The translations under genes were made by a program, and so were the position numbers. Under the pieces are notes generated by a model. It was given only the letters and a program-made list of their open reading frames with translations, did not search any database and was not told the origin of the DNA. DNA of 64,000 nucleotides from Candidatus Magasanikiibacteriota bacterium. GTDB lineage: Bacteria > Patescibacteriota > Patescibacteriia > Magasanikbacterales > GWA2-37-8. Below are positions 22,101 to 43,671 of the stretch, one piece after another (position 1 is the stretch's first letter; each line of letters starts with the position of its first letter). Location of the stretch: positions 10,507-74,506 of the forward strand of contig JACOYB010000008.1 in assembly GCA_016182085.1 (NCBI GenBank), given 5' to 3'.

Positions 22101-25100
22101 TGGAATTATAATTACCAACATAAGCGTAGCGGCCGGAGACAAAAATTGATTGGGGGCTATTTTCCACAGAGGTGGTAGAAATCCTGGAAATAACGGTATT
22201 AGCATCCGTAATGTTGGAAATATTTCCGACTACGGATAATTTTTGGGTTGGGGTAGTCGTGCCAACACCTACATTGCCATTTGCATTTATTCTAAAAATG
22301 TTTGTTGAAGGAGAAGAAGATACTATATCTAAAATAGGATTGCCACTGGCGGCAGCTTGCATGGTGATAAATGCGTTGGCAGAGGTGGTGTTAAATCCAA
22401 AATATGGAGCTTCGCCAATATTAAAGACGGTGTTATTAGAGCCATTTAAAACTTGAAATTCATTTATACCATTGCCATTAGCATCAATTCTCATAAAAAT
22501 TGAGTTATCAGAATTGATATTGAATCCATTATCCCCTTGTCCGTAAATTTCTACGCCTCCCGCGCTATTTACCAAGTTAACAATAGCGCTATCACTGGCA
22601 GTGCTGTGCACTATATCTCCGTTTGTTAAAATTCTAAATAAATCCGCCCCGCTAGAAGATACAACGGCAAAAGGATTTGTTCCGGCCGTACCTTGCAAAG
22701 CAAGGCTAGCAACCGGTGAAGAAGAGTTTATGCCAACTCTGCCATTTGTCAAAATCGTAAACATAGAAGAGGCGGCGGCAGTGTTAGTGACAACCGAGAA
22801 AGGATTTACAGATCCAGATCCTTGGACTGCCAAACTTGCCGACTGAATAGTAGTAGTGCCGACAAATATTCCGGTTTTGGCAAAAATGTAGCGCGGATTT
22901 CTCGTGCCGCCGCCTATATCAAAAGTATTATCGGTGCTAAAACCAACATCGCTGCCGAACAATGTAGCGCCGGTACTATTGCCAACTATGGTTTGATTAG
23001 AAGAATTAAGGCTAATTAAATTTAGATCTCCGGTGTTGGCGGCGTTTCTTATATTTATGCCTGTATTGGTTGAGAGCCGGATAGCGCCGGCGGTGGCTGG
23101 AACATTGCCAATACTTAACGCGCCGTTTCCGCCAATAGTTAACGCGTTGGTTGGAGTGCTTGTACCAATACCGATATTTCCATTGGATAAAACTTTTATA
23201 ATACTGGAAGAGGCGGCGCTATCAATACTAAATATGGAAGATGTGGAGCCTGTAGAAGATGCAAATATAGACAAACCGCCTTGAGAAAAAATTCCTCCAG
23301 CGCCAACATTTAACGATGTCCCAGCCATGATATTGCCTTGAGCAAAAACATCGTTTCTGGATTGAATATTCCCGACTTCGGCAGAGTGAGCAATAAGACT
23401 GGTAACTTCCGTGCCGGAAATATCAATGATGGAAAAGTTGGATGAAGTGTAATTAGCCGTATACGCATAGCGGCCGGAGACATAGACCGATTTAGGAGCC
23501 GAACCAACAGTGACACTGGTTAATAGGGCAGGATTCGTTGAGCTGGCAACATCAATTATAGACATGTTAGTTGAAGCGCTATTAGCCACATAGGCGTAGC
23601 GCCCTGACACATAGATATCTGTAGGGTCGCCTGCGGAAACAGTACCGACTGTTACGGGATTTGATGAACTGGATATATCAACAACAGAAACAGTATTTGC
23701 GGCATCATTTGCCGTATACGCATAGCGGCCGGAAACATAAATAGATGCTGGGCCTGTGCCCACAGAAGTAGAGGCTATAAATACTGGGGCCTGAGGATCG
23801 GAAACATCAATTACCGATACACTGGCTTCGTTATAATTGGCTGTATAAGCAAACCGGCCCGAGACAAAAACACCGTTAGGCTGAGAACCCACGGTAGTAG
23901 TAGAAATTCTTACCGGAGATAAAGGATTAGAAATATCAATAATGGTCATGGTAGTTGCACTGCCATTAACTACATAGAGATAGCGACCGGACACATATGG
24001 TGATTTAGGGCCGCCACCTACAGTTATGGTAGAAACTTGTCTTGGGGCAGACGGATTGGAAATATCAACTATAGAAACATTAGCGCCGTTACCATTTGTT
24101 ACATAAGCATACCGACCGGAGATGTATAAATCATTTGGGTTAGTACCAACTGAAGTGCTGGCAACAAATCTCGGGTACGCTGGGTTAGAAACATCAACAA
24201 TCGATATGCTATTTTCAACTTGATTGGCTGTATAAGCATATTTACCTGAAACAAAAATTCCAAGTGGGTTTGACCCAACCGAACCAGTACCAACTACAGA
24301 AACAGCAGTGCTTGGATCTGTAATATTAGAAATATTTCCCACCACGGATAATTTTTGCGCCGGGGTACTTGTGCTAATACCAACATTGCCATTTGTTAAA
24401 ATGGTAAACATAGAAGTAGCGGCGGCAGTTGAACTTACAACCGAGAAAGGATTGGCTGTGCCCGTTCCTTGGATAGTTAATTTTGCTTGCGGCGTAGTGG
24501 TGCCGATTCCAATTAAACTGGTTGGTAAAATAAACAAAGTGGAAGTGCCAACCAAGGTTGTTCCATTGGAAGCATAATAAGAAAACTGTCCGGCGGTGCC
24601 GCTACTGACCGTGCCGCTGCCACCTATACCCAAAGAAGACGTGGAAACCCAAGTAACTACCGAACCATTACTTTGAAGAAGATAACCATTTACTCCCAGA
24701 CTGGAAACACTATCATAAATTCCACCCGTTAATGCTAAATCGCCTTGAACTGAAAGAGTGGCTATCGGAGAAGAGGAATTTATACCCACTCGGCCATTTG
24801 TCAGAATAGACAACAAAGAAGCTCCTGTAGAAGAGTTTATACTAAAAGGATTAACCCCGGCCGTACCTTGCAATGCCAAACTGGCTATTGGCGAGGAAGA
24901 ATTTATGCCTACTCGGCCATTTGTTAAAATCGTAAACATAGAAGACGCGGCCGCGCTGGAAGATACAATTGAAAACGGATTTTCTGTTCCACTTCCTTGA
25001 ATTGTAAATTTAGCAGACAGGGTAGATGTGCCTATGCCGATTCTTCCGTTGGCAAGGGCTCTAAATATATATGGCGTCTGAACAGAGCCAATGTTAAAAA

Positions 25101-27564
25101 TAGATGAAGTAGCACCGGTAGAAGAAGCAAAAACAGACAACGCTCCTTGCGATTGAATACCGCCGGCCCCAACAAAAAGCGATGTTCCGACCATTACATT
25201 TCCCTGGGCAAAAATATCATTTCTAGATTGAATGTTTCCGACTTCGGCGCTGTGAGCAATAAGACTGGTAACTTCGGTACCGGAAATATCAAGAACTATC
25301 AGGCCGTTGCTTTGATAATTGGCCATGTAAAGATAGCGGCCGGAGACAAAAACATAACTAGGATAATTAAAACCAGCCCCCAAAAAAGTATTAAGCACAG
25401 CCGGAGCTAAAGGATTAGAAAAATCTACGATAGAAATACTATTGTCGGTGGTATTAGCCGTATAACCATAACGACCGGAGATATGTATTGAAAATATTCC
25501 CGCAATAACAGAGCTTGTCGCCACCGGAACCGGGGCTGCCGGATTCTTAACATCTACGACAGAAATAGTTTCAGATCCACTATTTACCACATAGGCATAG
25601 CGTCCGGATACAGAAATAGAAGATGGATTAGTGCCAAGGCTGGTAGTAGCTATGCGAACCGGATTAAGCGGGTTGGAAATATCAATTACAGAAATACTAC
25701 CGCCGCCATAGTTGGCGGTATACGCATAACGACCGGAGACATATATGGAATAAGGACCTAGGCCCTCCATAGTAGTGGTAGCTACTTTAGTTGGGCGCAA
25801 TGGATTAGAGATGTCTACAACCGAAACGCTATCGCCGCCATAGTTTGCAATATAGGCGTACTGACCGGAAATATAAATTGATCTAGGACCTGTGCCGACT
25901 GAAGTAGTGGCCACTTGCCGAGGGGAAGATGGATTAGAAATATCTACAATTGACATGCTATCTTCACCTTGATTGGCGGTATAGGCATAACGGCCGGAAA
26001 TATATACAGAAGCCGGATTAGACCCTGTGTTGCCTATGGAAGTGCTGGCCACATGCGTCGGAGATGATGGATCAGAAACATCAATTATAGACAAACTTCC
26101 GCTATCAAAATTTGTCATATACACATAACGGCCGGAAACAAAAGGAAACCAAGCGCCGACCTCCATAGTCGTAGAAGCAACTTTAGAAATAGTAGTACTA
26201 ACATCGGTAATGTTGGAAATATTTCCTACGACCGATAATCTTTGAGCCGGAGTAGTGGTGCCAATACCTACATTTCCATTTGTATTTATTCTTAACAAAC
26301 TGGCGCCGGTAGATGAAGTAATATCAAAAGGATTAACACCGGCTGTACCTTGCAAAGCAAGACTAGCAATTGGCGAAGAAGAGTTTATGCCAACACGGCC
26401 ATTTGTAAGCACCGTAAACATAGAACTAGCGGCCGCGGTTGAAGTAAGAATTGAAAACGGATTTGCCGAACCAGTTCCTTGGATAGTCAATTTTGCCTGT
26501 GGAGTGCTGGTGCCAATACCAATTAAACTGGTGGGTAATATGAACAAGGTGGAAGTGCCAACCAAGGTTGCTCCACTAGAAGCATAATAAGAAAACTGTC
26601 CGGCGGTGCCGCTACTAATTGTACCGGTACCAAAGGTAGTGCTATTTATCCAAACCGGTCTGCCTGCGCCAGCTGACATGAGCAAGTAACCAAGTGTTCC
26701 AACTTCGGTGGCGTTGTATCTGGTACCATCTGAATAAATTACCGAACCGTTGGCTGCCAAAGTAGAAGAATTAGTGCCGCCATTAGCAATAGATAAAACA
26801 CCCGTAACATCTGAGGCGGAAGCTAAATTGACGGTGGAAGTTGCCCAATTTCCGGCTGTGACGCGAACCAAACCAGTCCAAGCTTGCGAGTTTTGTCCGG
26901 TACCGCCATATGTAGATGAGATTACCGTTCCGTTCCAAATTCCGGCGGTAATAGTGGCAAAACTAGATCCACCAAAAACATTCAAACTGCCAAGGATGGT
27001 GGAAGTAGAAACCGTAGTGCTGTTAAACGTAAAATTGCCACTACTATCTGATCTGGGAATATAGGGGGTAGTAGAGAGAGTATTTACACCGTAACCGTCC
27101 AAGTATTTTGAATTAAATGCATACGGTGTAGCGGTAATTCTTTTTCTTGGAGTCAAGGTATCGGAACCAATTCTGACTTCTAAATATACGGAACTGTTAT
27201 TTTGAAAAATTGCCGGTTCTAATGAATTTGTGCCAGTATCGCCCAAATTTATACTAAACAAACCTTGGGATGGAGTTGTGCTAACAGCCACAGGAGTGCC
27301 AATCGTACCGCTGGCGGTATATAAAACATTCCCACCACTTGAAGCATCGTACAAAATAAAATACATGTTTTGGCTGGTCGTGGCCAAACGATTACTTATT
27401 AAAAGTTTACCCTGATAGGTAATAATTGATGGAGCAACGGCCGCATTGGCTTTATTTGAAACAAAACCAATAATTGCAAAAAGCAAAACTAGCCCAAATA
27501 TCAAAAAAATGGGAAGGTTTTTCGCATTTCTGCCGCTTCTACGTGGCGTTTCCTCCATAATCAT
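16126..27564 (-). CDS. Giant cell-surface protein (3812 aa)
   Basis: N-terminal signal anchor. Three paralogous ~700-aa modules follow, each with IGTSTPQAKLTIQG-type tail-fibre-like repeats. Each module also has a run of ~8 YVTN/LVIVD blades (VSGRYAYTAN...SVVDISNP) and a conserved ISGTEVTSLIAHSAEVGNIQSRND segment. Seven 51-aa tandem repeats (CGNASCSSGNVTTTIDS...DGLPVISYYN) follow. The C-terminus is Ser/Thr-rich. Confidence 0.85.
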   Translation of the reverse strand: MIMEETPRRSGRNAKNLPIFLIFGLVLLFAIIGFVSNKANAAVAPSIITYQGKLLISNRLATTSQNMYFILYDASSGGNVLYTASGTIGTPVAVSTTPSQGLFSINLGDTGTNSLEPAIFQNNSSVYLEVRIGSDTLTPRKRITATPYAFNSKYLDGYGVNTLSTTPYIPRSDSSGNFTFNSTTVSTSTILGSLNVFGGSSFATITAGIWNGTVISSTYGGTGQNSQAWTGLVRVTAGNWATSTVNLASASDVTGVLSIANGGTNSSTLAANGSVIYSDGTRYNATEVGTLGYLLMSAGAGRPVWINSTTFGTGTISSGTAGQFSYYASSGATLVGTSTLFILPTSLIGIGTSTPQAKLTIQGTGSANPFSILTSTAAASSMFTVLTNGRVGINSSSPIASLALQGTAGVNPFDITSSTGASLLRINTNGNVGIGTTTPAQRLSVVGNISNITDVSTTISKVASTTMEVGAWFPFVSGRYVYMTNFDSGSLSIIDVSDPSSPTHVASTSIGNTGSNPASVYISGRYAYTANQGEDSMSIVDISNPSSPRQVATTSVGTGPRSIYISGQYAYIANYGGDSVSVVDISNPLRPTKVATTTMEGLGPYSIYVSGRYAYTANYGGGSISVIDISNPLNPVRIATTSLGTNPSSISVSGRYAYVVNSGSETISVVDVKNPAAPVPVATSSVIAGIFSIHISGRYGYTANTTDNSISIVDFSNPLAPAVLNTFLGAGFNYPSYVFVSGRYLYMANYQSNGLIVLDISGTEVTSLIAHSAEVGNIQSRNDIFAQGNVMVGTSLFVGAGGIQSQGALSVFASSTGATSSIFNIGSVQTPYIFRALANGRIGIGTSTLSAKFTIQGSGTENPFSIVSSSAAASSMFTILTNGRVGINSSSPIASLALQGTAGVNPFSINSSTGASLLSILTNGRVGINSSSPIATLSVQGDLALTGGIYDSVSSLGVNGYLLQSNGSVVTWVSTSSLGIGGSGTVSSGTAGQFSYYASNGTTLVGTSTLFILPTSLIGIGTTTPQAKLTIQGTGTANPFSVVSSTAAATSMFTILTNGNVGISTSTPAQKLSVVGNISNITDPSTAVSVVGTGSVGSNPLGIFVSGKYAYTANQVENSISIVDVSNPAYPRFVASTSVGTNPNDLYISGRYAYVTNGNGANVSIVDISNPSAPRQVSTITVGGGPKSPYVSGRYLYVVNGSATTMTIIDISNPLSPVRISTTTVGSQPNGVFVSGRFAYTANYNEASVSVIDVSDPQAPVFIASTSVGTGPASIYVSGRYAYTANDAANTVSVVDISSSSNPVTVGTVSAGDPTDIYVSGRYAYVANSASTNMSIIDVASSTNPALLTSVTVGSAPKSVYVSGRYAYTANYTSSNFSIIDISGTEVTSLIAHSAEVGNIQSRNDVFAQGNIMAGTSLNVGAGGIFSQGGLSIFASSTGSTSSIFSIDSAASSSIIKVLSNGNIGIGTSTPTNALTIGGNGALSIGNVPATAGAIRLSTNTGINIRNAANTGDLNLISLNSSNQTIVGNSTGATLFGSDVGFSTDNTFDIGGGTRNPRYIFAKTGIFVGTTTIQSASLAVQGSGSVNPFSVVTNTAAASSMFTILTNGRVGINSSSPVASLALQGTAGTNPFAVVSSSGADLFRILTNGDIVHSTASDSAIVNLVNSAGGVEIYGQGDNGFNINSDNSIFMRIDANGNGINEFQVLNGSNNTVFNIGEAPYFGFNTTSANAFITMQAAASGNPILDIVSSSPSTNIFRINANGNVGVGTTTPTQKLSVVGNISNITDANTVISRISTTSVENSPQSIFVSGRYAYVGNYNSSTISVVDISNPAAPVQIATTSVGTNPRSIFVSGRYAYTVNQGSNNISIIDISNAAVPRQISTVAVGSSPRSIYVSGRYAYVANFTSDSMSVVDISNPLAPVQIATTSVGDGANSVYVSGQYAYVTNFSANTVSVVDISNPSIPVQVSSTVVDARPMSIYVSGRYAYTANDTSDSISVIDISNASAPTQIATTSVGASSGPASIFVSGRYAYVANQSNQTIAVVDVSSSSAPTLITTLALGTNAGSNSIFVSGRYLYAVSSGLNSMFVIDISGTEVTSLIAHSAEVGNIQSRNDIFAQGNIMAGTGLNVGTGGIMSQGSISVFASSTGASSSLFSIDTAERSNILKVVANGRVGINTSTPVASFALTGQGGVPLINIVTSSVSVLSTDSIGDLTLKSSGGSHSFQFSESAGLIFTSSFGKYFFAGTNPYIRAYTNTGMGVAGNLATNLSGVSVFFNDDNQRQATSGTSTMAQVRGTFNPGSGTGNFIGLDVAPTVSTSPSYNGQYISALRVSPLVTAMSSTNAYLFDVGTNALANGAGNHTSLFVIDKNGRVGINTTSPIATLALQGTGSADPVEIASSTGASLFRVLTNGDVGVMTGNLGVRVTTPSELIHARLDQSAQSGLRIDNNNSGSSASAGFDFRNGGLGTDDRVLLLTAGTGYTAVTGWQDAGILSSQSNISGGLVFNANAGGIKFETGGNGSAFQKMAITNAGRVGIGTTTPLAFFTIAASSTNGGNSIFEVASSSGASYLRILHDGRIGINTTSPIASLALQGAASANPLEIASSTGSSMFRILQNGNVGIGTDAPNADLQVGNTTETQGLIAITAATNGTSDIFFDTTAQNRGVIRYTFAGGSQLSADSMAFWTAGTERIRIDALGRVGINTTSQRATFNIFSTPTSTPLFDIASSTGASMLRVLANGNIGVNSSSPVSIFSVVGTSTFDGNVLPNASPTAGASTQVTTTIDSAGDQGSYSSIAIGADGLPVISYYNVTDLDLRVVKCGNASCSSGNVTTTIDSAGDQGSNSSIAIGADGLPVISYYNATNGDLRVAKCGNASCSSGNVTTTIDSTGDQGQETSIAIGTDGLPVISYYNVTDLDLRVAKCGNASCSSGNVTTTIDSTGSQGTDTSIAIGTDGLPVISYYNATNGDLRVAKCGNASCSSGNVTTTIDSTGDQGQDTSIAIGTDGLPVISYYNGTDGDLRVVKCGNSFCSSGNVTTTIDSAGDQGQLSSIAIGTDGLPVISYYNGTDLDLRVAKCGNASCSSGNVTTTIDSTGNQGQFTSIAIGTDGLPVISYYNVTDLDLRAAKCATPGCKNTTGGSFTGGSNIGSLGAFFMNVYANSFWGKQFQIEGFDLAESYRVDDLSITAGDLVRIATSSSGVRPTVEKTTGAYDGVVGVISTNPGIRLSDWTSSEDGRLVTLSGRVPTKVSDENGPILAGDPIAASSLPGVGMKAKKDGVIVGRALESFAGSGTGVIEVFISPSWAPGQSPLTIDTTSSTITVGDSTNPFDLIISGNISFANNSIVNKLSFATSTLFESNVGSFAGSRAFTFNAANFTSPLADNYIISLRANNNSVFSVAANGDVHTSGNYYGASAVLGTSTNPGDLAERVDIAIDDTAEAGDVMMVDPNSPDTYRRSNSAYEQSVAGVISTNPTIVVGNGKTDYTAVLAMVGRVPVKVSAENGAIARGDLLVSASTAGFAMKYDPTKDKNNKVVGIIGVALEPLPASSTGKILALIRTGWVYNRDKDIDNLHNNIEQLAIAQGINLSPGANPGTLSVESNNNQLVYSGGNLDLQNNSIINVAGIIGKDDKWKIDEFGNLIQKITTAVGDKEIYGLQSAGKQEIVISGTSTLENGTRRVVLTDLDQAIIDRSVPLNIQITMSGDTKGVYVSERNYDSFVVKENENGQSNAAFDWTVIAKVLQPEEVVPEAINESSGGAGIPETPEVSQESPSSTTSTTTDPSTSTVSETIEPVASSTEPVVLEQPPAENIVNTSTAAE
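18190..19260. repeat. Seven tandem 153-bp coding repeats inside the giant gene
   Basis: A repeat of period 153 nt with sequence ...gcattttgc..ccctcagatcaagatctgt...ggcaagccatctgtgccaatggcgatgga... is visible in the DNA. Confidence 0.8.
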
Positions 27565-31921: not shown

Positions 31922-32287
31922 ATGAATTCTTTAATATCTCCTTCTTTAGACTTTATAGCCGGTTTCTTTAGCACAGGCGCTACCTTTATGTGGGTAAAGC
32001 AAAAAAACTTAAAGGTTCCCGTATTCCAAATAAAAATGCAGATTTCGGACCGAGACTTGCTTGAAACGGTAAAATTAAAACTCGGTCTTAAGGAAAAAAT
32101 ATATGAATATAAGTATAAAAATACAAATTATCTTCTTTTACTAGTCCGAAAACGATCAAGTATAGAAAATGTCATAATTCCAACTTTTGACGGGAGATTA
32201 TTTGGAAATAAAGCAATTCAATTTGAAAACTGGAAAAATAAGTATTATCAAGAGAAGCTTAACTTTGTTTATAAACACTATAGATAG
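31922..32287 (+). CDS. Free-standing LAGLIDADG-type homing-endonuclease-like ORF (degenerate motif)
   Basis: SLDFIAGFFSTGATFMWV follows the LAGLIDADG dodecapeptide pattern, but the acidic residues are replaced by S/A. A downstream …DRDLLETVKLKLGLKEKIY… segment is typical of this family. It lies in a very AT-rich (~25% GC) patch. Confidence 0.5.
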   Translation: MNSLISPSLDFIAGFFSTGATFMWVKQKNLKVPVFQIKMQISDRDLLETVKLKLGLKEKIYEYKYKNTNYLLLLVRKRSSIENVIIPTFDGRLFGNKAIQFENWKNKYYQEKLNFVYKHYR

Positions 32288-32528
32288 ATACAAAATGTTT
32301 CACGGGAAACTTTTGTAGGAATAAGTTCTATTTATAGCTACTTTAGTTAACAAAGTTACTAATAGTAGTAGTTACACAAATTCAAGTTTAATATAGTTAA
32401 AAATCTTCTAAAATTAGCCACTATTTATAATTAAAGTGTATAAATTTGTATAGACTAATGTATACAAATATCCCCATATCCACCTAGTTATACACAGACT
32501 TATCCACTTATTTTTTACCTTAAAACCA

Positions 32529-32557
32529 TTGACAAATGGCCTATTTTAAGGTATATG
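32529..32557 (+). promoter_or_regulatory. Sigma70-like promoter for the metalloprotease gene
   Basis: TTGACA, a 17-bp spacer, then TATATG. The SD AAGGAG sits 7 nt before the ATG at 32587. Confidence 0.5.
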
Positions 32558-32586
32558 TACCTTCATTAACCGCCAAGGAGATACAC

Positions 32587-33558
32587 ATGCCCAGAACTTT
32601 CTGGCTAGTCGTTGCCTTTCTGGTGGTTTTGTCCACCACTGGCTGCACCAAGTGCTCCCAATCAAATGGGACACCGACTTCCACAGATCCGTGTGCGGAT
32701 CAAGGAGAGCGGGATGCCCTCCTGACCATGTGGGAGTCCGACATGGCAACCGCCCAAGTGGAGTTTGGCCTCTCACAGGCCTGGACCAACTGGGTCAACG
32801 AACACAAAGGTTCCTACCAGAATCCCTACATCCACACTCGCTGCCGAGACAAGGCCGCGGAAATTCTGGTCCTTCTAACCTATTATGGAGGAGCTGGACG
32901 AAAGCCGACCTTCTTCAGAGATGGGTGGACGCAGGAAAAAGAAGATCACTTCCGTGACCTTATGGAAAGGTACATGGAAAAGGTCTTTTCAGGCTTTGAC
33001 TTTTATCTCACCTTCAACTCTGAGGGTTCCAGATGGGTCAACGCCGAAGAAGCTCGTTTGATTTTGGCTGTCGGATACAACGGACCAGCGTCGTTTGCAA
33101 CAGACAAGTACCTCTACCTCATTTATCCGGCTATCGTTGGACATGAGGCGGCACACTTGTGCCCTCAACCTTATGACCAGAATGGCTGGTGTATGGGGTA
33201 CGACCACCATTACTGCAATGACGAAATAGACAATCATGAGCGTTGCGCGCCACCAGGTGAATTTGAAGTAGGCTGCATCATGCACCGCAACGCCCTAACA
33301 TTCGGACCAATGGAGCAAAAGATCTCCGGACTTGATTATCCTTTCTCGCCAGAAGCCCGACAAGCGCTGGAAGACGAGATTGAGGGTATAGGACTGGAGA
33401 TCAAAACCATGTTGCCCGAAGAAATGGTTGCTCGCGGCGAAGCCGAACTTGAAGCGCCACTCAACCACGGTCTTGAGCTGACACCGCAGCAGCGACAAGA
33501 CCACATTGCTCACAAGCAACTTCTCCAGAATGGCCAGTACTGGCTTTCTGGAGAGTAG
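32587..33558 (+). CDS. Lipoprotein zinc metalloprotease (HExxH) encoded in a GC-rich island
   Basis: Signal plus lipobox (LVVLSTTGC) and HEAAH in …AIVGHEAAHLCPQ…. Local GC is about 55-58%, against about 40% nearby. The start is reassigned to the Met preceded by AAGGAG. Confidence 0.65.
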   Translation: MPRTFWLVVAFLVVLSTTGCTKCSQSNGTPTSTDPCADQGERDALLTMWESDMATAQVEFGLSQAWTNWVNEHKGSYQNPYIHTRCRDKAAEILVLLTYYGGAGRKPTFFRDGWTQEKEDHFRDLMERYMEKVFSGFDFYLTFNSEGSRWVNAEEARLILAVGYNGPASFATDKYLYLIYPAIVGHEAAHLCPQPYDQNGWCMGYDHHYCNDEIDNHERCAPPGEFEVGCIMHRNALTFGPMEQKISGLDYPFSPEARQALEDEIEGIGLEIKTMLPEEMVARGEAELEAPLNHGLELTPQQRQDHIAHKQLLQNGQYWLSGE

Positions 33559-33592: not shown

Positions 33593-33624
33593 CCACCACC
33601 CTAAAAGGTGGTGTTTTGTTTTTT
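33593..33624 (+). terminator. Rho-independent terminator
   Basis: ccaccacc-ctaaaa-ggtggtg followed by ttttgtttttt. Confidence 0.7.
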
Positions 33625-33664
33625 ACAAAAGTTTCTTAACTAGAATAATCTTGGATCGCTGTGC

Positions 33665-33693
33665 ATATCCTACTACATAGTGTAGTAGGATAT
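33665..33693. promoter_or_regulatory. Perfect 13-bp-arm palindrome containing the TACTACA-N3-TGTAGTA motif
   Basis: atatcctactaca-tag-tgtagtaggatat. The core is shared with the sites at 38203 and 39777. Confidence 0.5.
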
Positions 33694-37059: not shown

Positions 37060-37241
37060 AATAATTAGCTTTCCAATAAGCATTACAATTTTAATGCTTA
37101 TCTTCTTTTTTAGCAATATTTTACATTGACAAAATCAAAAAAATATAGTAGTGTGGGTCTCACCCATATATGGTGATTCCTTCGGCGGAACTAATATCCG
37201 CCAGCACCTAACAGGGCTTTTCCCTTCCGAAACGGAGCATC

Positions 37242-37631
37242 ATGAACAACCCCGATCCTTTCGATCCGCCCGATGAACTGGACCAGACGCTGCACGGCGA
37301 CGAGGTGCCGCCGACAACTACGACCAGCGACGAGACTGGCGAAGACGATGAGTCCACGGCCGATACCATGGACCGGAACCGACCCCCGTCCGACGGCTCC
37401 CCGCTTGCAGATGAGGCCGTGTTCATTGAGCTCGGCGAGATCGCCGATGCCATTGACGAGGTGATTGATGACGATCTGAAGTTTGATCGTAATCAGCCCG
37501 TCACCATGAGCGGTCAAATCGGCACTGCCAAGTCCAGTCCGGCCCATGACGCCAGGCTTCACCAATGGAAAGCCATTAACGTGGACGCTTCCATTGGCGG
37601 CGGTACGGATGCGAGTAATCGCCTTCCCTAG
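37242..37631 (+). CDS. Acidic hypothetical protein encoded in a GC-rich island (~60% GC)
   Basis: A GGAG SD sits 6 nt upstream of the ATG. The ORF is highly acidic and low-complexity (DPPDELDQTLHGDEVPPTTTTSDETGEDDEST…), with strong terminators immediately after it. Confidence 0.5.
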   Translation: MNNPDPFDPPDELDQTLHGDEVPPTTTTSDETGEDDESTADTMDRNRPPSDGSPLADEAVFIELGEIADAIDEVIDDDLKFDRNQPVTMSGQIGTAKSSPAHDARLHQWKAINVDASIGGGTDASNRLP

Positions 37632-37650
37632 CGAGGGCGAACAAGGAGAA

Positions 37651-37725
37651 TATGGTAGCTGTTCTGAGGAAACAGAACAGCTACCACCTATAAATTAAAG
37701 CATCGCGCCTCAAGCGCGTTTTTTT
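37651..37725 (+). terminator. Two hairpins, the second a canonical rho-independent terminator
   Basis: gtagctgttctg-aggaaa-cagaacagctac is a perfect 12-bp stem. gcgcctcaagcgcg followed by ttttttt is the second hairpin. Confidence 0.7.
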
Positions 37726-37831
37726 AATGGTCCCAGACCATAGAGGGGTTGACTAACCCCTCAAAATATGGTAAGTTATCTTCGCCCTAGCGACAGCCTG
37801 CAAGGCTTTCCCGCTAGCGCACAGGAACTAC

Positions 37832-37942
37832 ATGCAGAAGAACAACATCGCCAACCCCCGCGGTCGTCCGACCAGCAACACGGAGGCCCTCGTTCATAGC
37901 GATCGCAAGAATCTCGACAACACCGGCGCCGGCGCCAACTGA
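37832..37942 (+). CDS. Small ORF (36 aa) in GC-rich island, SD-preceded
   Basis: AGGA 6 nt before the ATG. The product is MQKNNIANPRGRPTSNTEALVHSDRKNLDNTGAGAN. A TTGACT-N17-TAAGTT promoter-like sequence lies at 37749-37777. Confidence 0.3.
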   Translation: MQKNNIANPRGRPTSNTEALVHSDRKNLDNTGAGAN

Positions 37943-38033
37943 TCCCAGCTCGACGCCGACGACAACGGTCTCGCGACCTGAATCCTCATCCTGAGGAGCC
38001 GGGCCGGGGCCGATCCTCCGCGCTGCGGGAGAG

Positions 38034-38144
38034 CATCATGGAGAACTTCCTGACAACAGGATGTTCCACCTGGCTCAAGCAGCCACCGGAAGGGCGGCGG
38101 CACCAAGTCTTCGGACACGGTGCCGCCGCCCACTCCGTCTATAA
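38034..38144 (+). CDS. Small ORF (36 aa) in GC-rich island, SD-preceded
   Basis: GGAGAG 5 nt before the ATG. The product is MENFLTTGCSTWLKQPPEGRRHQVFGHGAAAHSVYN. Coordinates are approximate. Confidence 0.25.
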   Translation, partial: HHGELPDNRMFHLAQAATGRAAAPSLRTRCRRPLRL

Positions 38145-38202
38145 TTAACTCAGCCATTACTTAGCTCACGCATACCTTGCGGGCTTTTTTTGTTTTATGC
38201 TA

Positions 38203-38219
38203 TACTACACATTGTAGTA
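38203..38219. promoter_or_regulatory. Candidate BlaI-family operator TACTACA-cat-TGTAGTA overlapping the promoter of the repressor gene
   Basis: A perfect palindrome 23 bp upstream of the ATG at 38242. BlaI/MecI/CopY repressors bind TACA/TGTA dyads. Confidence 0.6.
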
Positions 38220-38241
38220 AATTTTTTATCCTAAAAAATAT

Positions 38242-38628
38242 ATGCGATATAACGCTACCACTTCTTCCTTAGGAAGTTTGGAAGAAGAAATCATGCAAAT
38301 AATTTGGAAAGAGCCCGCGGCTTCGGTGCGTTTGGTTTTTGAAAAAATAAAAAAAAGACGCGAGATTGCCTATACTACCGTTATGACCATTATGTCCCGC
38401 TTGCACGCCAAAGGCATACTAAACCGCAAACAAAAAGACGGCGGCGCTTATGTTTACGCCCCGGCGCAAAGCAAAGAAAAATTCTTGGAACAAATTTCCG
38501 AACGGGTAATAAAAAACTTAATAAAAAATTGCGGCGAGGTAGCCGTGGCCAGATTTATAGATATAGTGGAAGCGGGTAATTTTAAAAAATCAGCTCAGTG
38601 GAGAAAAAAACTGAAAAAGATTAAATGA
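38242..38628 (+). CDS. BlaI/MecI/CopY-family winged-helix transcriptional repressor
   Basis: …EEEIMQIIWKEPAASVRLVFEKI…YTTVMTIMSRLHAKGILNRKQKDGGAYVY matches the penicillinase-repressor fold. There is no C-terminal CxCx4CxC motif, so it is not CopY-like. Confidence 0.8.
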   Translation: MRYNATTSSLGSLEEEIMQIIWKEPAASVRLVFEKIKKRREIAYTTVMTIMSRLHAKGILNRKQKDGGAYVYAPAQSKEKFLEQISERVIKNLIKNCGEVAVARFIDIVEAGNFKKSAQWRKKLKKIK

Positions 38629-38643
38629 TTCCGGTTTTAAATT

Positions 38644-39702
38644 ATGATTTTTAACATGCGGCAAAAATCCAACTGGCTGTTTGCTCAAATTATAATCTTG
38701 GGAACGATTATAACTATTCTTATCGCCGGTTTATTTTATAAAATTTATAATTTCACATTCGGCGCTTTAGGCAATATTACTCTAAACCGCATACAAAATG
38801 CTTGCGGCTGCCAAATACCTTCATCCGCCAACAACTCTGTCCTTACGGGGTTTGCTGTTCTGCTGGGATCGGCTATAGTCATATCTTTTATTTTTGCCTT
38901 ATCCAAAATAATTATTTCTTTAATAAAAACCAAAAAATTTATAAGCCTGCAAAAAATAAACTTCGTTAAAAGCTCTAAAAAATTAACCCAGGTAGCGGCC
39001 ACCATCGGCATCCAAAATCAGGTGGTAGAAATAAATACAACCCAACCCCTTATTTTTTGCCACGGACTAAAAAGCGAAAAAATATACATATCATCTACGG
39101 TAGTAAAAGCTTTGAGTTTTGCCCAGTTACAAACAGCTCTGCTACACGAGACCCATCATTTGCTTACAAAAGAGCCGGCTCGATTATTAATCCTAAAACT
39201 CATCGGGGTATTTGGTTTTATCCCGGGCATCAATAGTTTAATAAAAAAATATTTGTCTTTTTCGGAGATCGCGGCCGACGAACTGGCTACAGATAACTTT
39301 AAAGAAAAAAACCATCTGGCCGCGGCTATGGCCAAAATTTTGGAACTGGAAGAAAAAAACATTATCCAAAAAGAGTTAGCCGTATCTTTCTTCAGCCAGA
39401 TGACAGAAGAACGAGTTGTAAATTTAAGCGAAGCTGGTTATAAACCAACATTTAAAACAGAGCTGCTAAAAGCAGCTTTTGGCATAGCTGGTGCAGCTAT
39501 ATTTATTTTATTTTTTAGCTCCAACCTAAATGTTCAACAGTCCAAGGCCCAAGAAATATATACAAAATCCGGCTGCGCCGAACAAATTTATAAAATTGAA
39601 AAATGCCAAAACGGCTGGACAAAATGCGCCGAACAAAATTATCATCAAGAAAAAACCAATTGTCAAAAATCTATCAAATACTTTGATAAGTTAAAAAATT
39701 AA
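38644..39702 (+). CDS. BlaR1/MecR1-like M56-family signal-transducing metalloprotease with a novel Cys-rich C-terminal domain
   Basis: Multiple TM helices, zinc site LLHETHHLLTKEPARL (HExxH), then a C-terminal CAEQIYKIEKCQNGWTKCAEQNYHQEKTNC with four Cys. There is no penicillin-binding domain. Confidence 0.7.
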   Translation: MIFNMRQKSNWLFAQIIILGTIITILIAGLFYKIYNFTFGALGNITLNRIQNACGCQIPSSANNSVLTGFAVLLGSAIVISFIFALSKIIISLIKTKKFISLQKINFVKSSKKLTQVAATIGIQNQVVEINTTQPLIFCHGLKSEKIYISSTVVKALSFAQLQTALLHETHHLLTKEPARLLILKLIGVFGFIPGINSLIKKYLSFSEIAADELATDNFKEKNHLAAAMAKILELEEKNIIQKELAVSFFSQMTEERVVNLSEAGYKPTFKTELLKAAFGIAGAAIFILFFSSNLNVQQSKAQEIYTKSGCAEQIYKIEKCQNGWTKCAEQNYHQEKTNCQKSIKYFDKLKN

Positions 39703-39776
39703 TTACTTGCCTGCAGGGTAGTGAGTTTAACTCTACTGCCCTGTGGATAAATAAATTTTACAATTAAAGCCATACC

Positions 39777-39793
39777 TACTACAATATGTAGTA
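39777..39793. promoter_or_regulatory. Second candidate BlaI-family operator TACTACA-ata-TGTAGTA
   Basis: A perfect dyad 20 bp upstream of the ATG at 39813. Confidence 0.55.
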
Positions 39794-39812
39794 ATAAATA
39801 ATTATATCACTT

Positions 39813-40562
39813 ATGCAAATAAACAAAGGCTGGTTAAAAAATAATCTAAACACGCTTCTCCTGGTGCTGCTTACCGTTTCGGTGGCTTCCAACCAGTTTA
39901 TCTTGGCAAAAACACAAAAAGTAGTCGGTATAAAAAATAATACCGCTCTCAGCTCTCTTACCGTGCGATTCCAAAAAATTATTAAGGGCGGCGTGGGTCT
40001 TTCCGGAAATCTGGGCGAAGATGCGGTAAAATTGGCCTTTATACAGGGCATACCGGAGGTATACGGCGCTGAATTAAATGTTAATTTTGACCAGCCGGCA
40101 GAATCAATGGGGGCGCTCAAACAATTTGATCTGGGTTATGGAAGAAATAAGCCCGACCTTTCCGCAGAAGAAAAAAAGCGATATACGGATATAAACTTGA
40201 AAATTTCTTGCGAATTTTGCTGTGGAGCAAAGGCGATAGTTTTTGAAAATGGCGAACCTTCCTGCGGCTGCGCCCATTCGCAGGCCATGAGAGGACTAAC
40301 TGCTTATTTAATAAAAAACCATGGGACCGAATATTCCGATGATCAAATTTTAAGAGAGCTGGCCAGTTGGAAAAGCCGCTGGTATCCAAAACAGATGGTG
40401 CAAAAAATGTCGGACCAATTAAAAAGCGGCAGCTACACCCCAGATATTGCCTCCTTGCTTCTGGATGTAAAATTGCCAAAATACGATGGAGCCGCCCACA
40501 GCGGAGCCGCGCCTTTGCCATCAGACATACAAAACGCGCCTAGTATGGTAGGCGGATGCTAG
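39813..40562 (+). CDS. Membrane-anchored Cys-rich protein with C-terminal PSMVGGC tag
   Basis: N-terminal TM, then CEFCCGAKAIVFENGEPSCGCAHS. The C-terminus is …AHSGAAPLPSDIQNAPSMVGGC. Confidence 0.6.
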   Translation: MQINKGWLKNNLNTLLLVLLTVSVASNQFILAKTQKVVGIKNNTALSSLTVRFQKIIKGGVGLSGNLGEDAVKLAFIQGIPEVYGAELNVNFDQPAESMGALKQFDLGYGRNKPDLSAEEKKRYTDINLKISCEFCCGAKAIVFENGEPSCGCAHSQAMRGLTAYLIKNHGTEYSDDQILRELASWKSRWYPKQMVQKMSDQLKSGSYTPDIASLLLDVKLPKYDGAAHSGAAPLPSDIQNAPSMVGGC

Positions 40563-40633
40563 ATTGAAAGTTAAAAGTTTAAAGTAGAAAGTTATAAAGT
40601 TAAAAAATAAAATTATTTAATAAATATAATTAT

Positions 40634-40900
40634 ATGGATGAACAAAAAAATTCCAGCGGGCTGGAATCTATAAAAAACGAAATTATCACTAAACTAAACG
40701 ACCAAAATAAAAAATCTTTGTCTTGGAATAATATGGTGGTAACGGCCGTTTTAGCGGTACTGACCATTGTCTCTCTTTCGCAAATGGCCGCTTCTATTAC
40801 TATTTTTAACAAACTAAAAACCGGCGATGTCCAAGCCGCTTCCGGAGCGCCTCAAAATAACTCTCTGCAAAGCTTGCCGGATATGGTGGGCGGATGCTAA
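40634..40900 (+). CDS. Small membrane protein with C-terminal PDMVGGC tag (paralogous tail to the previous gene)
   Basis: One TM (VVTAVLAVLTIVSL). The C-terminus is …AASGAPQNNSLQSLPDMVGGC. The DNA for the two tails is also near-identical (atggtaggcggatgcta versus atggtgggcggatgcta). Confidence 0.55.
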   Translation: MDEQKNSSGLESIKNEIITKLNDQNKKSLSWNNMVVTAVLAVLTIVSLSQMAASITIFNKLKTGDVQAASGAPQNNSLQSLPDMVGGC

Positions 40901-41742
40901 ATCGTATGAATGAACAACAAAACAATTTAAAAGTTAATTACTGGTTTTTAATGGCTGCTTCCGGGTTTATACTTATTGGCGGCATTGTTTCTACCGCGTT
41001 CTTCTTAAAAACCAACTCTCTGGCGAACAAAAATATCACGGCCGCAACCGAAACCAAACGTCCGGCTAATTTGGAATGGATAGCTATTCTAGACGAATCT
41101 TGCAAAGATTGTTTTGATATAAATCCGGTCTTTGATTACCTTAAAAAAGAAAATGTAAATTTTACTTCTCAAAAAAATCTGGATAAAAACAGCGAGGAAG
41201 GCAAAAATTTAATTGAAAAATATTCCATAAAAAAACTACCGACCTTTATTCTAAAGGGCGAGCTGCAAAAAAACTCCGTCCTGGCCCAATTTTTTTCTAA
41301 AACCGGAGATACCGAAGAAAACACTTTTGTTTTTAGGCAAGTAGGCGCTCCATATAGTTTAGCTGCTACTGGAGAAGTAAAGGGCCAAGTAAACTTTACC
41401 ATGATTACTGACACTTCCTGTACCGAGTGCTATGACGTAACCCAACACGAAATAATTTTACAGCAGTTTGGTATTGCGAGTCCGGGCACCGTAATTGATG
41501 CCAAATCCGCGGCTGGCCAAGCGCTCATTAAAAAATATAGAATAACTCTTGTACCAACATTTATTCTATCCGGAGACATGAACGAGTATCCAAGTCTTAA
41601 GCCGGTCTGGGCACAGGTTGGCGTGATAGCCAGTGATGGCACGTATGTATTTACCTCTGGCACGCCATTTATGGGAACATACAAAAACCTAACGACCAAC
41701 AAAGTAATTTCTCCTCCGGTTCAAAATAGTTCACAGCAATAA
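40894..41742 (+). CDS. Membrane-anchored tandem thioredoxin-fold protein with two CxxC motifs
   Basis: N-terminal TM. Domain 1 has CKDC with a cis-Pro motif KLPTFIL. Domain 2 has CTEC with LVPTFIL. Confidence 0.65.
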   Translation: MLNRMNEQQNNLKVNYWFLMAASGFILIGGIVSTAFFLKTNSLANKNITAATETKRPANLEWIAILDESCKDCFDINPVFDYLKKENVNFTSQKNLDKNSEEGKNLIEKYSIKKLPTFILKGELQKNSVLAQFFSKTGDTEENTFVFRQVGAPYSLAATGEVKGQVNFTMITDTSCTECYDVTQHEIILQQFGIASPGTVIDAKSAAGQALIKKYRITLVPTFILSGDMNEYPSLKPVWAQVGVIASDGTYVFTSGTPFMGTYKNLTTNKVISPPVQNSSQQ

Positions 41743-41743
41743 T

Positions 41744-42208
41744 ATGCTTAAAAACATTGCCCTAATAATACTAGTTGCAGGCGCAGCCACGGCCATGGTC
41801 TGGGCTATCATAAAACAGCCCTCGGCCACAACAGTTTCTCCGGCCACCGAAAATTACACTATATCTAAAACCGGCATCCATTATCATCCAAAGTTGGATA
41901 TTTATATCAAAGGCCAGTTGCAAACTATTCCGACTAATATTGGCATAGGCGCGGTGCACCTGCCAATACATACTCACGCGGCAGATCATATAATTCACTT
42001 GGAATTCTCTCGGTTAGTAACTCTGGACGATACAAGACTGCAGGAATTCTTCAAAATCTGGAATAAAAAATTTGACGCTAATTGTATTTTTGATAATTGC
42101 AATGGACCAAGCGGAACGGTAAAAATGTTTGTCAACGGCCAGCCGAATAGTGAGTTTGAAAAATACCCAATGAAAAATGATGATAGAATTGAAATTCGCT
42201 ACGAATAA
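41744..42208 (+). CDS. Membrane-anchored His-rich protein (possible metal-binding)
   Basis: N-terminal TM, then GIHYHPKLDIY…AVHLPIHTHAADHIIHLEF. No recognised domain. Confidence 0.55.
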   Translation: MLKNIALIILVAGAATAMVWAIIKQPSATTVSPATENYTISKTGIHYHPKLDIYIKGQLQTIPTNIGIGAVHLPIHTHAADHIIHLEFSRLVTLDDTRLQEFFKIWNKKFDANCIFDNCNGPSGTVKMFVNGQPNSEFEKYPMKNDDRIEIRYE

Positions 42209-42213
42209 CTTGC

Positions 42214-42411
42214 ATGATTAAAGAAATAACTATTCCAATTTTAAAAAGAAAAAAATACGCTCTTGTTGCCCTAGCCGCGGCTATTATAATGGCTGGCCTT
42301 TCTTATTACCTCACGATTGTTAATGTGGCCTTTCACAGTTTTTTTGTTCTTATCCAAATGGACGGCTGGGCCTTTACCACCGTTTCCTTAGGGCTTTCTT
42401 TGATTATTTAG
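42214..42411 (+). CDS. Small two-TM membrane protein
   Basis: 65 aa, hydrophobic, the last gene of the co-directional cluster. Confidence 0.35.
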   Translation: MIKEITIPILKRKKYALVALAAAIIMAGLSYYLTIVNVAFHSFFVLIQMDGWAFTTVSLGLSLII

Positions 42412-43671
42412 CATGAATTTGGCGGAGTCGCTGATTTTGAATCCTGCCTTTACTAACTCTGCCTCCAGTTGTTTGGCAGTTTTACCGCCGATCTCTACGG
42501 TTCCACGGCGGATTTTGCCTTCGGGGAACCAAAACTCGGAATAAATATGATTGATTATATCGGGTAGGGTTTTAAAAATACCAGGATACAAGGGGCCGAT
42601 ATATATTTTGGTACCTCTGTTTACTTCATTTTCTTTTTGCGCTATTTCCTCCGGTTTCACTTTAATGCCAATAAAAATTTGTGCGATTTTGGCAACATCT
42701 ATTTTGGACAACCCTTCCAGTGGCATGGCGCCCGCTTTTAAATACGGGGATTCGGTATTCGGGTTAAAATCTCGATAATGCACCTCGCCATTTTCAGTTA
42801 AAAGATGCTGGTCTTTGACTTCAATATCATCGAGTTCGTCGGGTGAAATATTGGAAAAATCTCTCGGTTCGCCAGTGTCAGTGGTAGTTTTTCCAACTTG
42901 CTTTATAACGCCAAACAAATCAAGGCCTGCAATATCTTGATTGGTAATCAAATCATCATTGGCTTTTTTTATTTGTATAACTATCTTGTTTTTTGGATCA
43001 TATTCAATAGTCAAAATCGGACTGTCTCCTTCCAGCTCACCCATTTGACCTAGTTTTTCATTAAATACGGGCACGGTACGCAGAGAAAATATCTCAATTT
43101 CACCTCTCTTCATTCTGTTTATATACGAATCACTCGTGCCAACACAGTGCCCCATATAATCAGATTCTTTTTCTAAATGCGGCATATTAAGAAGTTTGGC
43201 CAGATAAAATTTGCCGGAATTAGTGGTAAAAAAAGCCTCGTACGGATTAAGTTCTTGGTTGCCGGTAATTTCGGCGCGTCGTTTGCGTATCTCGGCAATT
43301 TTATACAGGGTTTTTTGTTCGTGAATTTTAAGCAAACGATGCAATCCGCCTTTTTCAATAGAAATAAAATTTGGCGTTTCAATAATGGCATCAAAAAGAG
43401 TATTTTCATCAACAGTGTTTTCTCTCTGAAAATATCGCGCTAATTTTAATTTTAAAATTGCCTGTTCTTGCTCGCCAAATAAAAACCCTTCCTGTCTGGA
43501 AAGACGCGCTTGCAAAGTATTAAAAGCAGCGGAAATAAGAGGTTCTTTTTGCGAACGTACATCTTCCGAAAAGATGGCGAGAGTATCTTGGTATAATTTT
43601 TCTACACTCGCTTTAGCGGGGCTGGCTGCTTCGGCTTTGGCATAGTCGTGCCGGATTCTTTCTGGGGTCAT
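42388..43671 (-). CDS. Hypothetical protein (427 aa)
   Basis: A long ORF with coding-like composition and no recognised motifs. Confidence 0.5.
   Translation of the reverse strand: MTPERIRHDYAKAEAASPAKASVEKLYQDTLAIFSEDVRSQKEPLISAAFNTLQARLSRQEGFLFGEQEQAILKLKLARYFQRENTVDENTLFDAIIETPNFISIEKGGLHRLLKIHEQKTLYKIAEIRKRRAEITGNQELNPYEAFFTTNSGKFYLAKLLNMPHLEKESDYMGHCVGTSDSYINRMKRGEIEIFSLRTVPVFNEKLGQMGELEGDSPILTIEYDPKNKIVIQIKKANDDLITNQDIAGLDLFGVIKQVGKTTTDTGEPRDFSNISPDELDDIEVKDQHLLTENGEVHYRDFNPNTESPYLKAGAMPLEGLSKIDVAKIAQIFIGIKVKPEEIAQKENEVNRGTKIYIGPLYPGIFKTLPDIINHIYSEFWFPEGKIRRGTVEIGGKTAKQLEAELVKAGFKISDSAKFMLNNQRKP

Follow-up and report, generated by a model that had tools for sequence, protein, structure and literature searches.

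A candidate repressor-protease-operator circuit and its cysteine-tailed envelope proteins in CPR bacteria and DPANN archaea

A 64-kb stretch of DNA from a Candidatus Magasanikbacteria genome, belonging to the bacterial Candidate Phyla Radiation (CPR), contains a cluster of seven plus-strand open reading frames (ORFs) at positions 38242-42411, and it is this cluster, here called g1 to g7, that is the subject of the present study; the term window refers to the whole 64-kb stretch. The first two genes, g1 and g2, encode regulators, and the remaining five, g3-g7, form a co-directional set of cargo genes. All seven had been proposed in a first-pass annotation made from the sequence alone, and all were found on the plus strand where it had placed them. 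The gaps within g3-g7 range from -7 to 71 bp, no terminator-like site on the plus strand lies between the genes of this set in the window, and the g3 protein is 100% identical to HYT15_04520. Related loci and contigs that were compared with the window are given L-numbers (L002, L028, L081 and so on).

The first gene, g1 (38242-38628, +), encodes a 128-amino-acid (aa) winged-helix repressor of the BlaI/MecI/CopY family, and its match to the Pfam family Penicillinase_R (PF03965; E 2.4e-25, 89.6 bits against a cut-off of 22.6) bears out the first assignment to the BlaI family. The closest solved structures are Mycobacterium tuberculosis BlaI (2g9w) and MecI, with BlaI also matched in the PDB. In the alignment, 'AVARF' of g1 pairs with 'LVLNF' of MecI, the phenylalanine of which we take to be that of the N101-F102 cleavage site, and F104 of g1 stands at the scissile-site Phe position, where a phenylalanine is kept in at least 85% of 51 members of the g1 family. 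The best NCBIfam match is CopY_TcrY (TIGR02698), at 48.5 bits far under the cut-off of 121.95, and the C-terminal CxCxxxxCxC metal site of CopY is missing from g1, which has a single cysteine, C97. Direct metal sensing of the CopY type by g1 is rejected on the ground that this motif is absent, and since g1 is without that metal site, sensing must be delegated to the protease encoded by g2.

The product of g2 (38644-39702, +) is a membrane zinc metalloprotease of the M48/M56 type, 352 aa in length, with three predicted membrane helices, a HETHH motif (nt 39145-39159, +), a conserved CGC motif in a predicted outer loop (nt 38803-38811, +; C56 invariant) and a predicted outer domain at the C-terminus with Cx9C and Cx11C pairs (nt 39574-39663, +). 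Alone it scores 26.2 bits on Peptidase_M56, under the Pfam cut-off of 31, and its M48 match is also weak; the assignment holds at the level of the family, because M56 is matched by all 41 aligned members (best E 4e-17) and M48 by 40 of the 41. Invariant in this alignment are H168, E169, H172, E208 and D212, in addition to C56 within CGC, and at family level H168, E169, H172 and E208 agree with the earlier description of an M56 (HExxH) BlaR1-like protease. The last 60 residues contain C311, C321, C328 and C340, and neither Pfam nor sequence matches in the PDB reveal a penicillin-binding (class D beta-lactamase-like) sensor domain in g2, so that the remark that four C-terminal cysteines are present and a penicillin-binding domain is not can be upheld in both its parts. 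The catalytic domain is predicted to be cytoplasmic, and the CGC loop and the C-terminal 60 residues are predicted to lie outside the membrane. Archaeal g2 proteins are shorter and without the C-terminal Cys domain, and carry Cys pairs at the N-terminus and in a loop.

A regulatory link between these two genes and the cargo had been guessed at from gene order only, and it gains direct sequence support from palindromes shared by g1 and g3. The perfect 17-bp palindrome TACTACA-N3-TGTAGTA occurs in three copies in the 64 kb, and a scan at up to 3 mismatches found 6 sites where 1.8 are expected. One copy, O1 (TACTACAcatTGTAGTA, 38203-38219), lies 23 bp upstream of the g1 start codon, a position conserved in L002, L003, L004, L005 and L011. 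Another, O2 (TACTACAataTGTAGTA, 39777-39793), overlaps the -10 hexamer in the promoter-like sequence TTTACA-17-TACAAT (39757-39785, +) that precedes g3 and that we call the cargo promoter; in at least 10 CPR loci O2 is conserved, 27-61 bp ahead of g3. In many CPR relatives a palindrome of consensus CTACTACA-N3-TGTAGTAG is found upstream of g1, of g3 or of both. The palindromes are likely operators through which g1 would act on its own promoter and, at the -10 box, on that of the cargo. A hairpin 3' of g2 that is followed by an A/T-rich run (39711-39746, +; -23.5 kcal/mol, z -5.6, matched by 0 of 200 shuffles) is a probable terminator dividing the regulator unit from the cargo unit. With this hairpin after g2 and an operator for each unit, the locus would comprise two transcription units under one operator type; the first-pass layout of regulators and downstream genes stands as to gene order, and is amended to two units, each with its own copy of the operator. 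The third copy (TACTACAtagTGTAGTA, 33671-33687) lies about 4.5 kb from the locus inside a 29-bp palindrome (33665-33693), 113 bp past the stop of a Cys-rich, lipoprotein-like ORF with an HExxH motif and 64 bp past the stop of a minus-strand DUF454 gene. The same arrangement is found in L003 and L005, and L007 carries a distal copy of the site too. A promoter-like TTTACA-16-AATAAT at 33622-33649 would make this third operator a downstream roadblock on an antisense transcript.

The archaeal loci show the same elements in a different arrangement. In Woesearchaeota the gene order is g6-g2-g1, divergent from g3-g4-g5, and the region between g1 and g3 contains a perfect TTGTAAAGCTTTACAA palindrome with TATA-box-like sequences on both sides (written TGTAAAgcTTTACA between the TATA boxes); the regulatory logic thus appears to be kept on archaeal promoters. 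Palindromes shared by g1 and g3, and kept in CPR as well as archaeal loci, support the original reading of the locus as a BlaI-type derepression circuit.

The distribution of the module is wide. We confirmed g3 relatives in 356 species-representative genomes, among them CPR bacteria and DPANN archaea, the archaeal carriers being Woesearchaeota, Micrarchaeota, Iainarchaeum, Pacearchaeota and Diapherotrites. Among the 41 loci with full flanks, meaning at least 4 kb on either side of g3, g4 stands beside g3 without exception, g5 is near it in 31, g1 and g2 are each near it in 29, g7 in 19 (all among the 25 loci of the CPR group) and g6 in 8. The first-pass annotation would have been contradicted had its downstream genes proved unrelated in other genomes; instead the gene set is found together across two domains of life.

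The two cargo genes that are always paired are also the two whose products share an unusual C-terminus. The protein encoded by g3 (39813-40562, +) has 249 aa and an N-terminal anchor; its Cys/His cluster, CExCCG...CGCxHS (nt 40209-40280, +), is invariant, and a flexible linker precedes the tail APSMVGGC (nt 40536-40559, +). The 88-aa product of g4 (40634-40900, +) is a 'mini-g3' in which only a low-complexity linker separates the membrane anchor from the tail LPDMVGGC (nt 40874-40897, +). The near-identical tails reported for the first two cargo proteins are thus present; of the accompanying statement that the DNA encoding them is conserved, it is correct that 19 of the last 24 bases agree, but this is no more than the shared peptide requires. 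Since the match of g4 to the g3 profile is confined to the anchor and the last 20-35 positions, g4 is, judged by its sequence, g3 without the central domain, a stripped-down paralogue. A total of 543 g3 homologues were found, and [MQ]VGGC ends 118 of the best 120. Across 80 related loci with 8912 ORFs, 157 ORFs end in GGC, and 156 of these are g3 or one or two adjoining small proteins, with the consensus LPxMVGGC; nearly all g3 and g4 proteins end in [MQ][VA]GGC-COOH, far more than chance would give. Its absence from homologues had been named beforehand as an outcome that would tell against the first-pass proposal, and what the homologues show is conservation.

The tail is also confined to these proteins. 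A metagenome scan with a degenerate DNA pattern for PxMVGGC plus stop codon yielded 89 matches in frame, of which 76 are g3-like (28) or g4-like (48) and the remaining 13 are spurious ORFs of 5-77 aa. Throughout the window only g3 and g4 have an MVGGC-type end, no other protein family with the tail was found in the related loci or in the metagenome scan, and because no family besides g3 and g4 carries it the tail is probably not a general sorting signal. Variants are rare (QVGGC in six loci, one of them archaeal, and MAGGC in one), and g3 and g4 of the same locus are concordant in them, which suggests one shared recognition partner. NCBIfam, which includes curated models of C-terminal sorting signals, holds no model that fits the tail; neither a membrane helix nor a basic stretch trails the motif, its cysteine being the last residue of the protein; and no sortase-, exosortase- or rhombosortase-like gene occurs among the conserved neighbour families examined (five of them without a Pfam match). 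These three results agree with the first-pass view that the tail is none of the known signals LPXTG, PEP-CTERM, GlyGly-CTERM and PGF-CTERM, and a literature search on the 'MVGGC' motif returned nothing relevant. Tails persist in loci without g1 and g2.

An AlphaFold 2 model of g3 has a confidence (pLDDT) of 76 and a disordered tail. The best structural match is the thiol oxidoreductase CcmH, a weak similarity for which hhalign is not significant, Foldseek finds nothing and Pfam gives no CcmH match. Sequence searches of solved structures with g2, g3 and g6 gave nothing useful, and g3, g4, g6 and g7 have no match to any family in Pfam or NCBIfam. A carrier protein of the ThiS/MoaD/SAMP type with a GG end was considered and rejected, as the tail of g3 and g4 follows a disordered linker and not a beta-grasp domain; the beta-grasp protein of the cluster, g6, ends in ...IEIRYE and not in GG.

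The remaining cargo comprises a thioredoxin-like protein, a beta-grasp protein and the remnant of a small membrane protein, and conserved cysteines define every cargo protein of the module but g6. The g5 gene (40894-41742, +; its start is uncertain, at 40894, 40906 or 40951, and an alternative gene call exists) encodes a membrane-anchored protein with two thioredoxin-like domains, one with the motif CKDC (nt 41101-41112, +) and one with CTEC (nt 41419-41430, +), the latter inside a conserved CxxCYDVxxH. Around these two CxxC motifs the window protein has weak thioredoxin and glutaredoxin matches in Pfam and NCBIfam, and an archaeal homologue scores above the Pfam thioredoxin cut-off. The g6 product (41744-42208, +) is a membrane-anchored beta-grasp domain with a Cys pair and an invariant His/Glu cluster (H46, H76, H78, H85 and E87; nt 41879-42004, +), and it probably binds metal, namely copper. 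Its family numbers 1135 representative clusters, and among ten long members five have cupredoxin domains and one a heavy-metal-binding HMBD. From the transcobalamin-like beta-grasp proteins (DUF4430; 3u7z, a 'putative metal binding protein') g6 differs in having its own invariant His/Glu cluster and Cys pair, in its membrane anchor and in the lack of any Pfam or PDB sequence match.

The last gene had been described as encoding a small membrane protein, and the ORF is there, but the intact protein is not. In relatives, g7 is a four-helix membrane protein of 160 aa with a conserved GCPTCGAP and a C-terminal Cys; the window retains the first ~65-70 codons (42214-42411, +), without the GCPTCGAP motif and the C-terminal Cys, and in a tblastn search of the window only residues 1-70 of full-length homologues align. 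The independent Logan contig L081 has the same truncation and junction. A PcfJ-like gene of 427 aa (42388-43671, -) converges on the truncated g7 and overlaps it; g7 probably lost its 3' part in an insertion or recombination event of which this gene is the mark.

Some relatives of the locus carry further genes beside those of the window. L002 (9013-9843), as well as L004, L005, L006, L009 and L010, has a gene for a GILT/DsbA-like protein of 276 aa between the cargo operator and g3; the L002 protein has CPYG in place of CxxC and a Gly/Cys-rich end, ...TAGGCGG, and the gene is absent from the window. L072 (1613-2161) and 11 other loci, mostly archaeal, encode a membrane protein of ~180 aa with HCPLCTG right after the signal peptide and no Pfam match, possibly the archaeal counterpart of the g7 CPTCG motif. 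A conserved helical protein of 160-180 aa with the sequence DLSxDEDLSIAVMNLISLEEHFFFT, also without a Pfam match, is found in L040 (8467-8973) and 17 other CPR and DPANN loci, and ends in ...DCCGE in the single full sequence inspected, that of L040. In L059 (9300-9839, -) and 12 other archaeal loci a membrane-anchored protein with a DUF7343/MarR-type helix-turn-helix and outer Cys/His residues adjoins g3; g1 and g2 are not detectable in L059, and this protein may be an alternative one-component sensor.

Evidence for the nature of the cue comes in part from the gene neighbourhoods. Copper genes, in the form of HMA chaperones (CopZ-like), cupredoxins, an HMA-DsbD_2-cupredoxin fusion or P-type ATPases, are present in 19 of the 44 related loci of at least 14 kb; as a rough expectation we assume a copper gene in a few per cent of random 20-kb stretches of a ~1-Mb genome. 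The P-type ATPases carry HMA domains together with CPC, YN and MxxSS signatures, which we take to be those of Cu(I) pumps, that is, CopA-type ATPases. In L028, 17 co-directional genes form a run that starts with g1 and g2, continues with g3-g7 and reaches a CsoR-family repressor, a DsbD_2 fusion and a CopA-type ATPase.

The regulator pair also has a close precedent in PetR/PetP of Synechocystis, which controls the copper-dependent switch between plastocyanin and cytochrome c6 and in which the protease degrades the repressor when copper is present. As in g1/g2, a regulator of the BlaI/CopY family has directly behind it an M48/M56 membrane protease in which the penicillin-binding sensor domain is missing; the regulator is likewise without the copper-binding cysteines of CopY and keeps the cleavage-site Phe, a preprint on PetR/PetP having pointed out that the Phe of the BlaI cleavage site is conserved in PetR; and sensing is proposed to take place in a loop that connects membrane helices and faces outward, corresponding to the CGC loop of g2. 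The differences lie in the sensor, which is proposed to consist of two conserved Met in PetP, whereas g2 has the conserved CGC and an extra four-Cys C-terminal domain; in the operator (GAC-N5-GTC for PetR, TACTACA-N3-TGTAGTA here); in the regulon (plastocyanin, cytochrome c6 and two small proteins, against Cys/His-rich surface genes here); and in the organisms, PetRP being cyanobacterial and the g1-g7 module occurring in CPR and DPANN. Because of PetR/PetP, a metal-sensing BlaI circuit is not in itself new. Taken with the g6 fusions and the copper neighbours, this precedent strengthens the earlier suggestion of a redox or metal cue and narrows it towards copper, which would be the inferred cue.

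Other known systems resemble the module in part. BlaI/BlaR1 and MecI/MecR1 of staphylococci and bacilli share with it the winged-helix repressor, a TACA/TGTA palindromic operator, an HExxH...E protease, and autoregulation combined with a second regulated promoter; the g1-g7 module differs from them in having no acyl-enzyme sensor domain, a cargo without relation to antibiotics and a range that extends to archaea. The copper repressors CopY/TcrY, a further copper precedent within the BlaI family, belong to the same family as g1 and provide its best NCBIfam match (48.5 bits), and the CopY cop box is TACAnnTGTA, but g1 has C97 only and no CxCxxxxCxC metal site. The ScsABCD operon of Salmonella is a copper-induced envelope operon that links copper and thiol homeostasis; it encodes proteins with a thioredoxin fold, a reductase anchored in the membrane and a small membrane protein that has a CxxC motif and an unknown fold (PMC10907172). 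As an example of envelope thiol oxidoreductases that are induced by copper stress, it speaks for the copper reading. The window has a thioredoxin-like protein, g5, and beyond the thioredoxin fold no homology to Scs is detectable; Scs is under CpxRA and not under repressor proteolysis, its proteins are without C-terminal Cys tails, and the window has no ScsB/DsbD homologue, DsbD_2 fusions being found in some relatives only. The thiol branch of cytochrome c maturation (CcdA/DsbD to CcmG to CcmH) differs in that no ccm genes were seen in related loci.

From this evidence we propose, with moderate confidence, that the g1-g7 module serves the envelope under copper stress or copper-linked thiol stress and is induced through regulated proteolysis of the repressor. 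The outer cysteines of g2 would be acted on by a thiophilic cue, for which Cu(I)/Cu(II) or thiol oxidation driven by copper is most likely, and g2, by analogy with BlaR1/BlaI and PetP/PetR, would then cut g1 near R103-F104 and so derepress both promoters. The cargo is predicted to lie outside the membrane, where g5 and the Cys-cluster protein g3 would keep or repair surface thiols and/or bind Cu(I), and the His/Glu cluster of g6 would bind metal. An intact g7, which this genome has lost, would provide a membrane-embedded CPxC site that passes metal or electrons, and the LPxMVGGC-COOH ends of g3 and g4 would be mobile thiolates, tethered on flexible linkers, from which one shared partner site receives Cu(I) or reducing equivalents.

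Several observations weigh against this proposal. In L028 the CopA genes have a CsoR-type repressor of their own, so that the neighbourhood does not prove a shared regulon. The window has no copper gene in or beside the module, and the only copper-type protein found in it, a DUF7282 and cupredoxin (COX2-like) protein at 497-1297 (+), lies 37 kb away. No plus-strand gene follows the third operator, and no obvious target gene was seen for it. The topology of g2 is based on a crude analysis of hydropathy and charge, and a sensor rich in Cys, where PetP has Met in the outer loop, could equally report redox.

An unlikely alternative is that copper is only an occasional neighbour and that the module manages surface thiols and disulfides independently of copper in quinone-less cells, in an oxidative-folding or a reducing direction, with g2 sensing the redox state of surface cysteines and the tails acting as resolving or shuttle cysteines between g5, g3 and g7. 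The definition of all cargo except g6 by conserved cysteines speaks for such a role, as do the two CxxC domains of g5, the GILT/DsbA-like gene that some relatives add directly behind the operator, the CcmH match of g3 and the Cys-rich sensor. Patescibacteria and DPANN are ancestrally without electron-transport chains (PMC7507113), from which we infer that quinone-dependent DsbB/VKOR routes are unlikely in them, and this too favours the alternative. A dedicated repressor would, however, be unexpected for a housekeeping folding pathway, the similarity to CcmH is weak, and this reading accounts neither for the fusion of g6 to cupredoxin and HMBD domains nor for the strongly enriched copper genes.

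Copper might instead be the cue for its own use, inducing g3, g4 and g6 as chaperones and g5 as a thiol reductase for the loading of cupredoxin-type proteins, along the lines of the Sco/TlpA/PCuAC route and of the turning on of plastocyanin by PetRP. Copper does derepress a cupredoxin gene under PetRP, cupredoxin genes and g6-cupredoxin fusions are frequent, and the genome of the window encodes a cupredoxin; yet the commonest neighbours are efflux-type CopA ATPases and a CsoR-family repressor, which fit detoxification better, and the conserved core is without a cupredoxin, so that we think copper acquisition or copper-protein maturation distinctly improbable as the function of the module.

The tail could also be viewed as a processing or sorting signal by which a protease or transpeptidase, possibly g2 itself, anchors g3 and g4 or releases a small thiol peptide from them. 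The motif is invariant and at the extreme C-terminus, LP precedes it as in LPXTG, g4 consists of anchor and tail only, and the module encodes a protease; all the same, such a function seems to us very improbable for a motif with two carrier families only, no trailing helix or basic stretch, no NCBIfam model and no sortase-like gene among the neighbour families examined, the more so as tails remain in loci without g1 and g2 and the catalytic domain of g2 is predicted to be cytoplasmic. Sensing of beta-lactams or other cell-wall antibiotics in the classical manner of BlaR1/MecR1, for which only the shared protein families argue, is rejected as having next to no likelihood in the absence of a penicillin-binding sensor domain in g2 and of any beta-lactamase or penicillin-binding protein among the cargo, and with the module present in archaea, which are without peptidoglycan.

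The copper and copper-linked thiol stress proposal can be extended, more speculatively, to the cell surface as a whole. It is conceivable, though we regard it as rather doubtful, that g3 and g4 constitute a novel type of surface device in which a single C-terminal cysteine on a long flexible tether substitutes for small-molecule thiols and quinone-driven Dsb, relaying Cu(I) or reducing equivalents over the surface of the ultra-small CPR and DPANN cells, that its loading state is read by a Cys-rich M56 protease, and that the whole circuit moved between Bacteria and Archaea and was refitted to archaeal promoters. That the mechanism of the tail is categorically new is a suggestion to which we likewise attach little probability.

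The DNA around the module has features of its own. A 340-aa ORF at 32536-33558 (+) has a GC content of 0.52 in a genome of 0.39, a lipoprotein-like N-terminus, the motif HEAAH, many Cys and no Pfam match, with homologues in L003 (57% identity) and L005 (44%), and is preceded at ~32436-32466 by a different conserved palindrome, of the type TGTATACA-N4-TGTATACA, that occurs in L005 and L010 as well. Between holA and g1 there are two islands of high GC (37150-37700, GC 0.56, and 37740-38160, GC 0.60), and each has a promoter-like site and an intrinsic terminator to itself. The first, which codes for an acidic ORF of 129 aa, matches L003 with 91% identity over 509 nt, and L005 has unrelated high-GC islands at the same position between holA and g1. 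The islands have no Rfam match, the only Rfam matches in the window being tRNAs. The window also contains a free-standing LAGLIDADG endonuclease ORF (31922-32287, +) and a giant ORF of 3812 aa (16126-27564, -).

As to what is new, the regulator pair g1/g2 belongs to known families and would work like PetRP. The novelty lies in the Cys-based sensor, in four cargo families for which no models exist (g3, g4, g6 and g7), in the obligate g3/g4 pair with its C-terminal Cys tail, and in the occurrence of the whole repressor-protease circuit in both CPR and DPANN; in the literature on copper and thiols in these groups we found no description of the g1-g7 module. Much of microbial diversity belongs to the CPR bacteria and DPANN archaea, and we know of no account of how they protect or oxidise surface cysteines and cope with copper. 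After PetRP, g2 would be the second independent case of a BlaR-type protease made into a sensor of a non-antibiotic cue, here from cysteines, and the module is a rare case of a complete circuit of repressor, protease and operator common to bacteria and archaea. The tail is a simple peptide motif that is open to direct chemical testing. If the copper reading is true, the palindrome together with the g1/g2 pair would serve as a practical marker of envelope copper stress in uncultured groundwater organisms.

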